In this document: one piece after another, positions 3,581 through 7,463 of the stretch | Numbering within the stretch: position 1 is the stretch's first letter | How the letters are laid out: every line of letters starts with the position of its first letter | Assembly: GCA_023818895.1 (NCBI GenBank) | Contig: JAMWCX010000002.1 | Coordinates: 330,001-362,000, forward strand | DNA: 32,000 nucleotides | Source of the DNA: Candidatus Omnitrophota bacterium | GTDB lineage: Bacteria > Omnitrophota > Gorgyraeia > 2-01-FULL-45-10 | Direction of reading: 5' to 3' | Translations under genes and position numbers: made by a program | Notes under the pieces: generated by a model | Told to the model about the DNA's origin: nothing | The model's input: the letters and a program-made list of their open reading frames with translations, nothing else | Databases searched by the model: none

Positions 3581-5976
3581 AGGACCGAGCCTGAACCGCC
3601 AGCGAGTATACCGGGCAGCGCAAGATCTCCGGCCGCGGTTATCGTGATATTGGTTATCCTGCCAGAGCCATCTGTAGTGACTGTAATATAGCCGTCCGTA
3701 ACCCATTCATTGCGAAGATTATCGTTGGTAAAAAGCAAGATCGCCGCGTTGACTGCCGCTTCAGCCCCTATTCCGTAACCATTGAACTTACCGACAAGGT
3801 AATCGAGCACGGCAAAGGCGGTCTGACCATAAGTGGTAACGCTGATAGCATCCGCGCCTATAGCGGCATCCCGAAGACCGGTAGCAAACATCTTCTGTAA
3901 ATAGACATAAATTCTGTCCTGGATAGCAAATCCACTTGCCGAATACGTATGGTTATCGATAACGAGGTTCGGCATAAGAGCCTCAAACATGGTACCTTCC
4001 CATGATGGTATATAGTGGAAGGTGTCGCTTCCTATCGTATAGTCGTAAACGCCGTTAGACGGAATCTGGGCCTGCCATGTCCAGTCTTCCGGATAAGCGG
4101 TGACCATCCTGTCCCATAACGCCGCGGGGATGGTGCTGCCTGTCTTACCTATGGCAATAAGAATTGTCGGGCGTATTTCGGTATATATATTTCCATAATA
4201 GGATGTTGTAAGAGTGCTTGTATCCGGATCAGCACCTGTGGCAAGAAGTCCCGCTGTGGTATTATATAAACTGTTAAAATTCATAGCATTGAAAAGCGCG
4301 TCAGCGTTTGTCCTGATAGCGCCTCCATATGCCTGCCGAACGACAAGCAACGCCGAGGCAAGCCAGCCATTATCGACTGTAGATATGAACTTTTCGCTTG
4401 CGGTAGAGGCAGAGGGCGGGTTGGTTGTAAAACTGTAATAATTATGGAAAAGACCGTTCCACTTGTCGAGAGTAGCCAGTGTTGCCAGGCAGTTAGTAAT
4501 ACGAGTTTGGGCGGTAGCACTGTCGATCAGGTTAAGCTCATCCGCCGCTACCACGCTCATTAGATACAGAGCTATGTCTGTTATAGAGGTATAATTGGCA
4601 ACGCTTCCTGCCGCGGTGCGCCTGTCCGGCGGAAGCCAATAGGTGCCCGCGTTAGTCGTGTCAGCGAAATAATTCCATGTGCTCTGCGCGTAACCCAAAA
4701 GCGTCGCTTTTTGAAGATCTGTAAGAGCCGAGGTATCAAGCTGCGCGCCGGTAGGGTCGGTCAGTATACCAGAATAAGCCTTGTTAAGTCTTCCTCTTGA
4801 AATAATAAGTGGGTTACTACCCATGAAATAGTCCTGTATGCATCCATTATTAAGGGCATTTGCAATGGACACGAGGATACATCCCTGCGACAGAGTAAGA
4901 TACACTTGAGCCACGTCATTATTAGTCGCGTTGACGGAATCGAGAAAACCATAAGTGCCGGTCATGCCGGATATGCCGCTTAAGTCGCCAATATTAGCCA
5001 TCGCCTCGGCCGGCGCAACGTCAAGAGCCAGGAAACTCGCATATGGTGTTACAACGCCTGATTCATTCAGGATCCACGCGCCGTGGCTCATACCGAGCGG
5101 CGCGTAATAATCACGATATGTCGAATCATCGGAAGGATCAGTACACGAGGACATTCCCCATACACTCAGGCCCTGCGAAGAGGTATTTATATTGATGACA
5201 CCTTCGGCCACAAGAGCTTCCCTTAGACTCGCATCGCCAAAAAGCTGAAGGGCTATGCGCTCAGCCGCCCACTGATCCAAACTTGCGGCCATCATCGCCT
5301 GTATGAGATTATACATATCGCCGGCTGCGACGTGGCCGTATTCTGTAAGGTTAACGTCCGTTATCACGCTACCGGATAAGGTGGTTGTGATAAAACGGGC
5401 ATCGAGCCATAGCTGGCGAAAAGCGGGATCAGTGAAGATAAAGTCTGCATATGCGTCATCAGTCCCATTATTGGGTATTCCGGCCGCCGCAAGTTCATCG
5501 GCGAATGAGACCATATTCGGTATGGCTATATTGCCGTTTGCGGTTATCGTTATCTGTGTAGGGTCATTTGTGTCATTTGACGGCTGTATAGAGAGGTATC
5601 CGGCGCTCGCCCAGCGTATGCGTTTCGCGTCGTCATAGTATAAGTATTCGCCTATGTAGCTTCCCATTCCTATGGCGCTCAGCTGATTTGCTAGCCTTAC
5701 AAGCATGTCATAGACCGCGACGCGGCCGTATGCGGTAAGGGTCCATGTCAAAGCGCCGTCAGATACTATGAAACCGGCGTTCTGCCAGTTTGTCCTGGCT
5801 CCGGCATCGTTAAAAATCGCCCATGCCCAATAATCGGCAAGATATGTCGGGTCTCCAGCAGGAATACCCGCCGCAATAAGCTCTTGCCTAAAAGACTCTT
5901 GGTCAGCAAGCGCCGCATGGGTTGTAACCATTACAAACAACATCACAAGACACACCAAACCGACTATTTTTTTCAT
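1..5976 (-). CDS. Giant secreted protein, 3' end beyond window (at least 1,992 aa): signal peptide, duplicated small N-terminal modules, (alpha/alpha)6 glycoside-hydrolase-like region, then tandem 64-66-aa repeats
   Basis: Not in the supplied ORF track. Reading plus-strand triplets in register with position 1, none of tta/cta/tca (minus-strand stops) occurs in 1..5976. ATG at 5976-5974, GGAGGG at 5985-5990. N-terminus MKKIVGLVCLVMLFVMVTTHAALADQESF looks like a signal peptide. Motif blocks: PLGMSHGAWILNESGVVTPY (5041-5100); TYGFLDSVN..YLTLSQGCILVSIA (4861-4980); YTSITDIALYLMSVVAADELNLI (4501-4620); TVDNGWLASALLVV (4321-4380); SWEGTMFEALMPNLV (3961-4020). All track ORFs in 241..5638 lie in other frames. 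Confidence 0.85.
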   Translation of the reverse strand, partial: MKKIVGLVCLVMLFVMVTTHAALADQESFRQELIAAGIPAGDPTYLADYWAWAIFNDAGARTNWQNAGFIVSDGALTWTLTAYGRVAVYDMLVRLANQLSAIGMGSYIGEYLYYDDAKRIRWASAGYLSIQPSNDTNDPTQITITANGNIAIPNMVSFADELAAAGIPNNGTDDAYADFIFTDPAFRQLWLDARFITTTLSGSVITDVNLTEYGHVAAGDMYNLIQAMMAASLDQWAAERIALQLFGDASLREALVAEGVININTSSQGLSVWGMSSCTDPSDDSTYRDYYAPLGMSHGAWILNESGVVTPYASFLALDVAPAEAMANIGDLSGISGMTGTYGFLDSVNATNNDVAQVYLTLSQGCILVSIANALNNGCIQDYFMGSNPLIISRGRLNKAYSGILTDPTGAQLDTSALTDLQKATLLGYAQSTWNYFADTTNAGTYWLPPDRRTAAGSVANYTSITDIALYLMSVVAADELNLIDSATAQTRITNCLATLATLDKWNGLFHNYYSFTTNPPSASTASEKFISTVDNGWLASALLVVRQAYGGAIRTNADALFNAMNFNSLYNTTAGLLATGADPDTSTLTTSYYGNIYTEIRPTILIAIGKTGSTIPAALWDRMVTAYPEDWTWQAQIPSNGVYDYTIGSDTFHYIPSWEGTMFEALMPNLVIDNHTYSASGFAIQDRIYVYLQKMFATGLRDAAIGADAISVTTYGQTAFAVLDYLVGKFNGYGIGAEAAVNAAILLFTNDNLRNEWVTDGYITVTTDGSGRITNITITAAGDLALPGILAGGSGSVLAIEIHEEIIAHGLQSDFQILYGTAVSNQVLSNNDYMSILVGIAGYISEHDDYTKPDYYTVDDFIYELGASADLHQAIIDNSLQSIVAAISNYAPINQNPVNNPAYRGWLAGVVNGTGYNLATYIAGLNGAMAVHNALDDVAYPTLRADFELIYGVAVADQVLEANMNDPDYLSTIQGIAGYIASNTIGYDIEDFKVELVTMADLHEGLTSNAALRADFESMYNVTYVADPETSDDYRFTLSGIASYIASHPPMTAAAFLNSVPIMADIHAALLADPALRADFETINNVTADTTPNVTTESYRYALAGMASYVLDNPPMTYTDLLDALPIMADIHAALLADPALRADFNIVYNTTADTTPNVTSTGYRNVLAGIASYALANSLDFNDILDAVPYIADIHAELLASATLRADFNAIYGVDPDTTPNVTSDNYRNALSGVASYILGSAGTYTVSDFVSALPIMADLDEAISADINVQSAFETIYGIEVANQDPVTNADYRNILSGVASYIIDNPPYSVADFTAELPVMENVHEALQADALLQADFETIYGIAPADQDPITNDAYRFNLSGIASFILNNAGYTVAIFMDALELMADLHEALAADPTGVGEDFASVYGIAVADQDPVTNADYRNILSGVANYILANPPMTVNDFLASLPIIDDLHAAISADPDLQADFETIYGIAVADQDPVNNPDYANALSGIARYIVTTPGYTVLRFTQALPIMADLDAAITASADIQNDFEVIYGIAPANQDPVTNENYRNLLSGTADYILDNAGYTVGDFVGALTPMADIHAALLADASLRADFNVVYNVTADTTPSVTTESYRYALSGIASYVLDNPPMTINDILSAIPIMADIHQALVADAGLRADFNTVYNTIADSGANVTTEAYRYALSGIASYVLDEGLTANDILNAIPVMADLHAALLADADLQADFTVVYNVVADTTANVTTESYRYALAGMAAYILDNGLTTSDLLDALPIMADLHAALLADAALRVDFEVIYSVTADTTANITGENYRYALSGIASYILANAGTTIDDILGAIPYMQDIHAALLADPGLRADFNIAYNTTADTTATVTSEDYRTVLSGIGAYVLANPGITVTDILNGVPYIVDIHQALLADASLRADFNTVYGVTPDTTASVQSDNYRAILSGVASYIVANSGSYGVSDFTGALSHMADIHEALVASADLQADFL

Positions 5977-6046
5977 TTTAGCAACCCTCCAAAGTTTATC
6001 CGATTGTTTTGACGCAAGGTAGGAAATTGTTTTCGAAAATATTTTC

Positions 6047-6094
6047 ATAAATTAAAAGCCTGGTCACCTACTTTTCAGCTTCGGTAACCAGGCT
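6047..6094 (-). terminator. Intrinsic terminator-like hairpin inside the leader of the giant gene
   Basis: Minus strand: AGCCTGGTTACC (6094-6083), 14-nt loop, GGTGACCAGGCT (6068-6057). This gives a 12-bp stem with one G-U pair, followed by TTTAATTTAT. It lies about 80 nt upstream of the ATG at 5976 and about 250 nt downstream of the preceding gene's stop. Confidence 0.6.
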
Positions 6095-6164
6095 GTCTAA
6101 AACTATATTAGACCCTTGGCTTTGCCGTGAACCAGAACTCACTTTGCTCGTTAGGTTCACGATC
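6078..6164 (-). promoter_or_regulatory. Candidate c-di-GMP-I (GEMM-I)-like riboswitch aptamer in the 5' leader of the giant gene
   Basis: Minus strand: GAUCGUGAACCUAACGAGCAAAGUGAGUUCUGGUUCACGGCAAAGCCAAGGGUCUAAUAUAGUUUUAGACAGCCUGGUUACCGAAGC. From memory, the Vc2 GEMM-I blocks are GGCAAAC, a 16-nt hairpin, ACGCAAAGCC, a long hairpin, then AGC..GGUUACCGA. Here the blocks are GCAAAG, a 16-nt hairpin GUGAG[UUCUGG]UUCAC, ACGGCAAAGCC (one extra G), a hairpin CCAAGGGUCUAA/UUAGACAGCCUGG, then GGUUACCGAAG. The 3' part (6081-6100) overlaps the terminator 5' arm. No covariance-model search was run. Confidence 0.4.
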
Positions 6165-6251
6165 CTCCATAACCACATCTTTCCATCATTTTAATAGCTA
6201 AGAAGGATGACCCTGCCTCACGACAGGTGTGCCTTTTTCGACCGCATTTTT

Positions 6252-6279
6252 AGTTTACTATAAAAAATTATTTTGTCAA
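6252..6279 (-). promoter_or_regulatory. Sigma70-like promoter for the giant gene leader
   Basis: Minus strand: TTGACA (6279-6274), 16-nt spacer, TAAACT (6257-6252), in an AT-rich intergenic region. Confidence 0.4.
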
Positions 6280-6347: not shown

Positions 6348-7463
6348 TTATTTTTCCAGCCAGATCTCAGGATGTTTATGATAGGAAATAACAAATGCTT
6401 CGACGACTTTTGGATCAAACTGAGTCGAGGATGCCTCCCTTATCCTGTCAAAAGCCGCTTCCTTTGAAAGCCCTTTCTGATAAGGCCTGTCTGTGGTAAG
6501 GGCGTCGAATGTATCGGCGACTGCTATTATCCTCCCTTCAAGGGAGATGGCATTTCCTTTGAGATGATGAGGGTAACCATTCCCGTCAAAGCGCTCATGG
6601 TGTTCCAGCACCCCCCTTATTATCTTATGAGAATCGTCTATCGACTCTATTATCCTTGCGCCTATACCTGGATGCATCTTTATCTGCCTGCGCTCATAAC
6701 CCAAGAGCTTTGCCGGTTTCATAAGAATACTTTCCTTAACGCCTATCTTCCCTATATCGTGCAGTATGCTCGCCAACCTCAGATTCTCAAGGGTCTCCTC
6801 ATCAAGATTGAGTTCCTGACCTATGGCAACAGCATATTTCATGACACGCTCAGAATGGCCGCTCGTGTACGCGTCTTTGGCATCTATAGCCCTGGCAAGC
6901 GATGTCACAGTGCTTATAAAGAGGTTCTTAAGGCGATGGTACAACTTAGCGTTGAGGAGCGCTATGGCTATATTATTTGAAAGCGCCTCCAATAGTTCTT
7001 TATCTTCTTCCGTGAAGAGGTGCCCCGGCCTTTTACGGTTGCTCACTATAAGTATTCCTATAATCTTACCTTCCACCTCGAGAGGGACGGCAAGAAAAGA
7101 GTGTATAGGCAGTTCTATATCAGCAAATGGCAGCTTCTTCCCTTTGAAAAGAAAGTTATCACGTATATCATTAACTATAAGCGGCTCTTTGCTTTTTATG
7201 ACATTCTCGTTTATAATCTCCCAGCTTCCCAGGAGATTTATATTGTCGAGCTCATCCGCGCTAAAACCTTTCGCCTTTGTCAGCATCAGCTTCCTGATGG
7301 TTTCATCCATCAGGAATAGCGAGGCATGGTCCGCGCCAAGCGCTTTTGACGACTGGTCGAGGACAATCTCGCTTACCTTTTCGAGATCAAGGGACGAGCT
7401 TATCTCACGACTTACCTGCAGGAGTATTTTCGCGGCTTCGTATTTGCGTGTGTTTTCCGTCAT
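6348..7463 (-). CDS. GAF domain + HD-GYP domain protein (predicted c-di-GMP phosphodiesterase)
   Basis: C-terminal motifs HSERV, ILHDIGKIGV, HHERFDGNGYP and VADTFDALTTDRPY define HD-GYP. The N-terminal ~170 aa is GAF-like. The ATG overlaps the upstream stop (ATGA at 7460-7463). Confidence 0.88.
   Translation of the reverse strand: MTENTRKYEAAKILLQVSREISSSLDLEKVSEIVLDQSSKALGADHASLFLMDETIRKLMLTKAKGFSADELDNINLLGSWEIINENVIKSKEPLIVNDIRDNFLFKGKKLPFADIELPIHSFLAVPLEVEGKIIGILIVSNRKRPGHLFTEEDKELLEALSNNIAIALLNAKLYHRLKNLFISTVTSLARAIDAKDAYTSGHSERVMKYAVAIGQELNLDEETLENLRLASILHDIGKIGVKESILMKPAKLLGYERRQIKMHPGIGARIIESIDDSHKIIRGVLEHHERFDGNGYPHHLKGNAISLEGRIIAVADTFDALTTDRPYQKGLSKEAAFDRIREASSTQFDPKVVEAFVISYHKHPEIWLEK

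Follow-up and report, generated by a model that had tools for sequence, protein, structure and literature searches.

The 32,000-nucleotide (nt) stretch analyzed here (the window; contig JAMWCX010000002.1 of a Candidatus Omnitrophota bacterium, positions 330,001 to 362,000) carries all of its genes on the minus strand, and the gap between a gene for a GAF-HD-GYP protein and a giant open reading frame (ORF) holds the leader of the giant gene. This leader very probably carries a cyclic di-GMP (c-di-GMP) class I riboswitch that switches on transcription of the giant gene. A GEMM-I-like element had been proposed at this place in an earlier note made from the letters alone, and the search with the Rfam model RF01051 (c-di-GMP-I) named there returned a match at 6158..6080 (minus strand) that scored 40.6 bits, above the gathering score of 35 (E = 8.3e-5 over the whole window). 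It was the sole Rfam match at gathering score in the 32 kb, and a GEMM-I element is present beyond chance. For the c-di-GMP-II alternative (RF01786), no match was obtained at gathering score in the window, nor at E values up to 10 between 5900 and 6400. The variant families c-di-GMP-I-GGC (RF03167) and c-di-GMP-I-UAU (RF03168), which share clan CL00126 with RF01051, scored below RF01051 in the window and were removed by clan competition.

The surroundings of the element recur in related contigs. Homologues of the HD-GYP protein numbered in the hundreds (55-92% identical), the named ones being from Omnitrophota, and the N-terminal 600 amino acids (aa) of the giant protein had a 58%-identical homologue in metagenome-assembled genomes of Candidatus Omnitrophica/Omnitrophota. 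The gene order CHASE2-PP2C, GAF-HD-GYP, leader, and very long gene was found again in the homologue-bearing contigs, and orthologues of the giant gene lay downstream of the same riboswitch in L001, L003, L015, and L018. The earlier note had an HD-GYP gene immediately upstream; this gene is there (GAF + HD-GYP, 7463..6348), and its neighborhood is conserved in the related contigs. Ten further loci came from scanning metagenomes for the conserved P3 pattern. The related leaders have a common layout, consisting of a TTGACA promoter, a short spacer, GUCGAAAAGGCAAA, a GNRA-capped hairpin, GAC, GCAAAGCC, the helix P3, GGUURCCGAA, and a 12-bp terminator. This layout is compact in L018, L010, L013, and L029, and contains two added hairpins (hp2 and hp3) between GAC and GCAAAGCC in L001, L002, L007, L003, L026, L015-L017, L008, and L012. 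The window leader has the extended layout, like the latter group. The compact leaders share with it the promoter spacing, the 5' GUCGAAAAGGCA, the GNRA hairpin, the P3 sequence, the 12-bp terminator, and the upstream HD-GYP gene, and the downstream gene of L018 is orthologous to the giant gene; they differ in lacking hp2 and hp3, with GAC leading straight to GCAAAG, and in their far higher RF01051 scores (69.4 bits for L018). The closest relatives of the HD-GYP protein showed no leader, the contig of L014 (92% identical) ending inside the gene and those of L027 and L028 (82% identical) at most 49 nt past it.

Aligned with the orthologous leaders, the whole extended aptamer spans about 170 nt (6246..6076, minus strand, as are all features below), and its predicted order is P1, a GGCACA core, a GNRA-capped hairpin, GUC, hp2, hp3, GCAAAGCC, P3, and ACCGAA. 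The 5' strand of P1, CGGUCG (6244-6239), pairs with 6083-6082 and 6079-6076 through standard pairs only, in a register identical in L013, in L003, and in the alignment to the orthologue-derived model R1 described below. The 5' end and core, GGUCGAAAAAGGCACA (6242-6228), were aligned to the orthologue GGCAAA; here a junction AAAAA is followed by G20 (6233), G21 (6232), C22 (6231), and A23, C24, and A25 (6230-6228), the whole occupying 6238-6228. The first hairpin (hp1; CCUGUC-GUGA-GGCAGG, 6227-6212) is the canonical P2 (P1b) with a GNRA tetraloop, and the GUC that follows it (6211-6209) supplies G42, position 43 (A43, a U here), and C44. Next come hp2 (6208-6162), with the stem AUCCUUC/GGAGGAU, an inner stem, and 33 nt between the outer strands, and hp3 (6161-6126), with the 8-bp stem CGUGAACC/GGUUCACG and a 20-nt loop containing GAGCAAAG. 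The 3' part of the core, GCAAAGCC (6125-6118), holds G45 (6125), C46 (6124), A47 (6123), A48, and A49 in both the Rfam and the R1 alignments. P3 (P2 in some papers; 6121..6086) is formed by AGCC-A-AGGGUCUAA and UUAGAC-AG-CCU-GGUU, with A6094 and G6093 bulged, the latter being the equivalent of G83. A91 (6085) and C92 (6084) lead into the 3' strand of P1, which runs through C6083, G6082, a bulged AA, and G6079 to G6076. The hp2-hp3 module (83 nt) is thus inserted exactly between C44 and G45, beside the pairs G45-C22 and C46-G21. A 10-codon ORF within hp2 (AUGAUGGAA...UGA) had no ribosome-binding site and was judged to be there by chance.

This extended structure was examined in several ways. 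Unguided folding of the window leader with four orthologous leaders in RNAalifold returned hp1, hp2, hp3, and P3, with 12 of 35 pairs kept through changes on both sides; hp2 also appeared in the minimum free energy (MFE) fold. Model R1 was built from five extended orthologues, the window being excluded, using the GEMM-I pairs of the literature plus hp2 and hp3. MAFFT misaligned L008 and L016 when given the untrimmed extended leaders, and lineage-specific inserts were trimmed by hand before model building. R1 matched 6246..6076 over model positions 1-128 of 128 with 87.6 bits (E = 2.7e-25) and no non-standard pairs; it also retrieved all the compact relatives, in which hp2 and hp3 appeared as deletions. 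When pairs were counted in 18 distinct sequences, 94.4% of cells were paired, compared to 84.0% in shuffles and 21-42% in slid controls, and changes on both sides were present in 18 pairs, a number reached by none of 500 shuffles. Both-side changes affected five of the six pairs of hp1 (97.9% paired), two of the five of hp2 (100% of cells paired), and six of the seven of hp3, while P3 was paired in 96.2% of cells. The alignment behind these counts was fitted to R1 and is biased towards the structure, and the independent RNAalifold result agrees with it. Covariation in homologous leaders, which the earlier note had named as a check on its proposal, was seen.

The position of the 5' half differs from that first proposed. 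The blocks on which the proposal was built (GCAAAG, a 16-nt hairpin GUGAG-UUCUGG-UUCAC, CGGCAAAGCC, CCAAGGGUCUAA/UUAGACAGCCUGG, and GGUUACCGAAG) are all in the sequence, but GCAAAG (about 6146-6142) and the 16-nt hairpin fall in the loop and 3' strand of hp3, and the actual 5' core GGUCGAAAAAGGCACA with CCUGUC-GUGA-GGCAGG lies about 85 nt further upstream (6242-6212). A compact aptamer, as aligned by Rfam, would use AGCAAAG (about 6147-6142) as its 5' half, followed by a 5-bp GUGAG/UUCAC stem, with an A at position 20 and a junction shorter by 2 nt; it would imply a GEMM-Ib-like sensor, selective for 3'3'-cyclic GMP-AMP (cGAMP) or bispecific, with CGUGAACC/GGUUCACG as an anti-aptamer element. 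HD-GYP enzymes are also able to degrade cGAMP, which was counted in favor of such a sensor. The optimal RF01051 alignment picks this AGCAAAG half, reading the GGCAAA core as AGCAAA and GACGCAAAG with a 2-nt deletion, and A20 is a known signature of cGAMP-selective or bispecific aptamers (PMC6140456; PMC8835794), being present in the Vc2 G20A mutant and in natural GEMM-Ib (PMC6140456). However, the compact form must break hp3, which is conserved and covarying in the orthologues and, at -11.9 kcal/mol, exceeds the stability of the short P2 (-3.4 kcal/mol) by 8.5 kcal/mol; the short-form fold comes out 9 kcal/mol less stable than the long-form one. The short P2 can be formed in no relative; L026 has GAGCAAA in its hp3 loop, and the hairpin after it is absent. 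Against the compact form, too, the distal GGCACA with its GNRA hairpin follows shortly downstream of the promoter and lines up, position for position, with the canonical 5' half in all the relatives, R1 takes the distal half at 87.6 bits, and RF01051 itself uses the distal GGCAAA in L003, bridging a 60-nt insertion, and covers the entire 122-nt extended aptamer in L026. We consider the compact aptamer very improbable. Since the relatives, R1, and the energies place the 5' half distally, the A20, the 2-nt deletion, and an extra G in ACGGCAAAGCC are local-alignment artefacts. The extra G, which had been thought able to alter specificity, is G6126, the last base of hp3. A reading of the RF01051 alignment as A20 and hence cGAMP was dropped once the orthologous leaders revealed the true 5' half; a misplaced half had produced a false specificity call, and the case cautions that a covariance match above threshold can misplace half of an aptamer that carries a long lineage-specific insertion.

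With the extended aptamer aligned through its orthologues, the ligand pocket is canonical. G20, A47, and C92 of Vc2 from Vibrio cholerae (the RF01051 reference, PDB 3IRW/3MXH) correspond to G6233, A6123, and C6084, and its pairs G21-C46 and C22-G45 to G6232-C6124 and C6231-G6125. Among the relatives, all 17 scorable sequences had G-C at G21-C46, and 15 of them had C-G at C22-G45. The nucleotides of the inter-helix C44/G83 tertiary pair are present as C6209 and the bulged G6093, the C being invariant in the extended relatives. In Vc2, A47 intercalates in the ligand (PMC6140456; PMC11705072) and C92 pairs with its G-beta (PMC6140456), and tertiary contacts are made by C44-G83 and A25-G42 (PMC11705072). 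Because the correctly aligned pocket has the canonical G20/A47/C92, the expected ligand is c-di-GMP and not cGAMP. The GNRA-capped P2 (P1b) and the P3 with its AG bulge are likewise shared with Vc2 and GEMM-I. The window aptamer differs from Vc2 in having hp2 and hp3 (83 nt) at C44/G45, which turn the P2 internal loop into a multi-helix junction, and in its GGCACA core (A24C). It has the GUGA loop (6221-6218) of GEMM-I type 1 without the 11-nt receptor in P3, where a continuous Watson-Crick helix UCUAA/UUAGA occupies the receptor position; the receptor is a feature of a subtype and does not define the family.

The 3'3'-cGAMP riboswitches of GEMM-Ib from Geobacter (Gs1761 and Gm0970) share the overall fold family, but have an A at position 20, where the window has G6233 in the orthologue and R1 alignments; the apparent A20 (6148) lies inside the hp3 loop. 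The pocket is G/A/C, unlike the G/G/C or U/A/U of the GGC and UAU variant families. By these sequence features the element is assigned to c-di-GMP-I and not to GEMM-Ib, the GGC/UAU variants, or class II. One metagenomic contig, L005, carried two GEMM-I aptamers about 1 kb apart (L005:160-243 and L005:1137-1220), both with GCAC in place of GCAAA; position 20 is G in one and A in the other (UAGCACC), and this second aptamer is a possible natural candidate for cGAMP or bispecific sensing.

The 3' side of the aptamer overlaps an intrinsic terminator (6094..6057), and here the earlier note's description of a 12-bp terminator followed by a T-tract was borne out. Its arms, AGCCUGGUUACC (6094-6083) and GGUGACCAGGCU (6068-6057), form 12 of 12 pairs around the loop 6082-6069, and the stem is followed by the U-rich tract UUUAAUUUAU (6056-6047); a consensus scan had overlooked it, the loop being longer than 8 nt. 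The 5' arm (6094-6083) consists of the bulged AG, the lower 3' strand of P3, A91, C92, and C93. The fixed terminator stem was calculated at -21.8 kcal/mol against -2.5 kcal/mol for lower P3 plus P1, the terminator-containing fold at -55.1 against -41.5 for the aptamer fold (a gap of about 14 kcal/mol), and the unconstrained MFE fold contains the terminator. The overlap of aptamer and terminator was kept in 10 related loci, with 12 of 12 pairs in nine of them, and compensatory changes were found at stem positions 8 (U-A to C-G) and 10 (A-U to G-C). Because the terminator 5' arm overlaps the P3 3' strand and C92, and is kept with compensatory changes, this conserved arrangement supports ligand-stabilized anti-termination, that is, an ON switch. 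Of the mutually exclusive ON design put forward earlier, the overlap of the terminator with the aptamer 3' strand stood. The proposed two-way pairing of UCGUGAACC did not, for this segment is the 5' strand of hp3, and its pairing with GGUUCACG is constitutive and covarying (six of seven pairs). In the P1-like pairing UCGUGAACC/GGUUACCGA, two internal positions are mismatched and C92 would be taken up; L003 offers no equivalent of it.

In the mechanism that we propose, transcription would begin just past the TTGACA/TAAACT promoter, and the first ~170 nt would fold as the aptamer. With c-di-GMP bound, the ligand would be held by G6233, A6123, and C6084, and lower P3 and P1 would be locked; 6094-6083 would then be unable to act as the terminator 5' arm, and RNA polymerase would read into the giant gene. 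Without c-di-GMP, lower P3/P1 (about -2.5 kcal/mol) would lose to the terminator (about -22 kcal/mol), and transcription would stop at the U-tract 6056-6047. High c-di-GMP would thus permit transcription of the giant secreted protein, and the adjacent GAF-HD-GYP phosphodiesterase would oppose this by lowering c-di-GMP, turning the giant gene off. The predicted switch would give a regulatory handle on a giant secreted-protein gene of an uncultured Omnitrophota-like bacterium. The predicted terminator-based ON switching differs from the behavior of Vc2, which is reported to be an OFF switch (bioRxiv 10.1101/617340). Many GEMM-Ib riboswitches are reported to be terminator-based ON switches for extracellular functions (in part PMC8835794).

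Several observations weigh against a functional c-di-GMP switch. The best RF01051 alignment takes a different 5' half; the source of R1 is close relatives, so plain sequence similarity makes part of its score; and the covariation rests on about six independent extended lineages. The core is GGCACA and not the highly conserved GGCAAA, the junction J1/2 has one extra A, and hp2 has a long loop insertion, any of which could weaken binding. The promoter and start site are predicted from consensus, and a diguanylate cyclase gene is absent from the ORFs of the window, among which neither GGDEF nor CD-NTase domains were found. Other departures from the norm are A43U and the P3 without the 11-nt tetraloop receptor. 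Taken further, A24C, the extra junction A, and the enlarged hp2 might abolish binding altogether, and the leader of such a decayed riboswitch would be a constitutive or protein-controlled attenuator. GGCACA in place of a strongly conserved motif is in keeping with decay, as are the lowest R1 score among the extended relatives (87.6 versus 101-144 bits) and an RF01051 score just 5.6 bits over the gathering score. On the other hand, the ligand- and tertiary-contact nucleotides are all intact, the helix pairs are all standard, and the terminator overlap is perfectly preserved. The A24 contact is reported to run via its phosphate, to G42 (PMC11705072), and the A24C change (GCAC) is shared with both GEMM-I aptamers of L005. 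A constitutive terminator of -22 kcal/mol would, moreover, silence an otherwise intact gene of more than 6 kb. Decay is, in our judgment, improbable.

The hp2-hp3 module raised the further question of whether the aptamer responds to a different ligand or a second input in place of plain c-di-GMP sensing. The module is conserved in about six lineages, its hp2 stem is conserved in sequence, a semi-conserved GAGCA(A/G)A motif recurs in the hp3 loop, and the insertion is directly beside the binding-site pairs G45-C22 and C46-G21. The pocket nucleotides are nevertheless unchanged, the hp2 loop can be anything from 4 to 33 nt long, and the orthologous genes of L018, L010, L013, and L029 use a compact canonical aptamer with the same terminator, so that the module looks dispensable for the regulatory logic. 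Altered sensing is accordingly given very little weight. The existence of compact orthologues that share the terminator makes the module look like a peripheral elaboration and not a change of function.

That the module marks a previously undescribed, multi-helix-junction subclass of GEMM-I, found only in the leaders of Omnitrophota-type giant secreted-protein genes, is a tentative suggestion that we regard as doubtful. On this reading the module might tune folding kinetics or affinity, and the riboswitch would then be the first cis-regulator found to tie the expression of a very long Omnitrophota gene to c-di-GMP. The Rfam model catches such leaders marginally or not at all (30-41 bits, several below the gathering score): RF01051 gave 41.4 bits for L003 and 40.0 for L026, 34.1 for L015 and L017 (below the gathering score), and about 30 for L008 and L012. 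The best match of L001 was a sub-threshold one to RF03168 (39.7 bits), and the compact L010 reached 55.6 bits with RF03167; the gathering scores of these two families (65.9 for RF03167 and 59 for RF03168) were reached by none of the orthologous leaders. Because several extended relatives score below the Rfam gathering score, the extended subgroup is probably under-annotated. A literature search for insertion-bearing or four-way-junction GEMM-I aptamers and for riboswitches in Omnitrophota found nothing relevant, and Rfam alignments may still hold the form; two reports on giant genes of Omnitrophota (bioRxiv 10.1101/2023.11.21.568195 and 10.64898/2026.06.07.730766) mention neither riboswitches nor c-di-GMP. 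Scanning viral contigs for the hp3/core junction pattern turned up a single match, which lies in coding DNA and is put down to chance, and produced no model match.

The semi-conserved hp3-loop motif (window 6153-6134) reads CGAGCAAAG in the window, UGAGCAAAU in L026 (3778-3790), GGAGCAGAA in L015, and GAAGCAGAC in L003 (5831-5843), and in the window it is what Rfam took for the GGCAAA core. Inspection by eye for base pairing of the hp3 loop with the loop of P3 revealed short complements in L003, L001, and L015 and none in the window, L026, or L008, and such an interaction was discounted. Some relatives carry further elements. In L015:3719-3954, L016:3719-3921, and L017:2842-3077, an extra hairpin stands between GGCAAA and hp1, with a 33-nt indel polymorphism between samples, and L008:4573-4793 and L012:2124-2344 carry about 100 nt of inserted sequence behind hp3, within which a palindromic GTCATTCTGAGCGAGCCCTCGAAGGGCGAAGTGAAGAATCTC-type element is similar to one found upstream of the L003 promoter. 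The HD-GYP orthologue is followed by tmRNA-like and tRNA genes, and not by a riboswitch and giant gene, in L023:3732-3891 and L025 (after 3643), and in L019-L022 a long gene comes directly after it, with GEMM-I absent. L003 (CAYGRZ010000025.1) is labelled 'uncultured Planctomycetia'; its HD-GYP protein is, however, 78% identical to that of the window, and it agrees with the Omnitrophota-type loci in leader, signal peptide, and synteny, so that the label may reflect an error of binning or taxonomy.

Upstream of the aptamer, the consensus scan placed a -35 hexamer TTGACA at 6279..6274 and a -10 hexamer TAAACT at 6257..6252, with a 16-nt spacer (promoter-like site 6279..6252). The leader before the giant-gene ATG at 5976 is about 270 nt long, and both promoter and leader had been described in the earlier note. 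From the promoter spacing alone, transcription would start at about 6246-6244. TTGACA or TTGACT is found similarly close upstream of the aptamer in L001, L003, L004, L008, L010, L013, L018, and L026. The window, L003, and L015 share a block of leader sequence, about 50 nt long (6027..5977), that lies between terminator and start codon (AUUUCCyrCCUUkC..CAAAA.AAUCGG..AAACU..GGAGGGUU), and the Shine-Dalgarno sequence GGAGGG (5990-5985) is inside it. A helix sequestering the Shine-Dalgarno sequence was sought in this block, where there was a weak ACCUU/GGAGG consensus pairing of -3 kcal/mol and no covariation; a second, translational control layer is possible but unsupported.

The giant secreted-protein gene, presumed to be the regulated one, runs from 5976 to 1 and off the window, and encodes at least 1992 aa. 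In its product, a signal peptide and a Glycoamylase/DUF3131 region are accompanied by an array of at least 17 tandem repeats, each about 65 aa long. The repeats (window 3160-1, residues ~940-1992) follow the pattern ..ADFE.IYG.....D..N.DYR..LSG.A.YI........DF...LP.MADLH.AL.AD.. and continue past the window edge. They gave no confident Pfam match, a single 46-residue stretch resembling DUF6642 (whole-protein E = 6.5e-08). The GAF and HD-GYP phosphodiesterase gene (Pfam HD_5, 4.4e-39, plus GAF) encodes a protein with intact motifs HD (235), HHE (288), and GYP (296), and an exact look-up of this protein gave no record. Upstream of it (14692-7460), in order from the HD-GYP gene, lie genes for an RsbW-like kinase (HATPase_c_2), a STAS protein, MlaE, an ABC ATPase, MlaD, a FecR-like protein, a 352-aa protein without a Pfam match, and a CHASE2-SpoIIE (PP2C) protein, an order mostly kept in the related contigs. 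The presence of the RsbW-like kinase, STAS, MlaEFD, FecR-like, and CHASE2-PP2C proteins suggests a partner-switching input.

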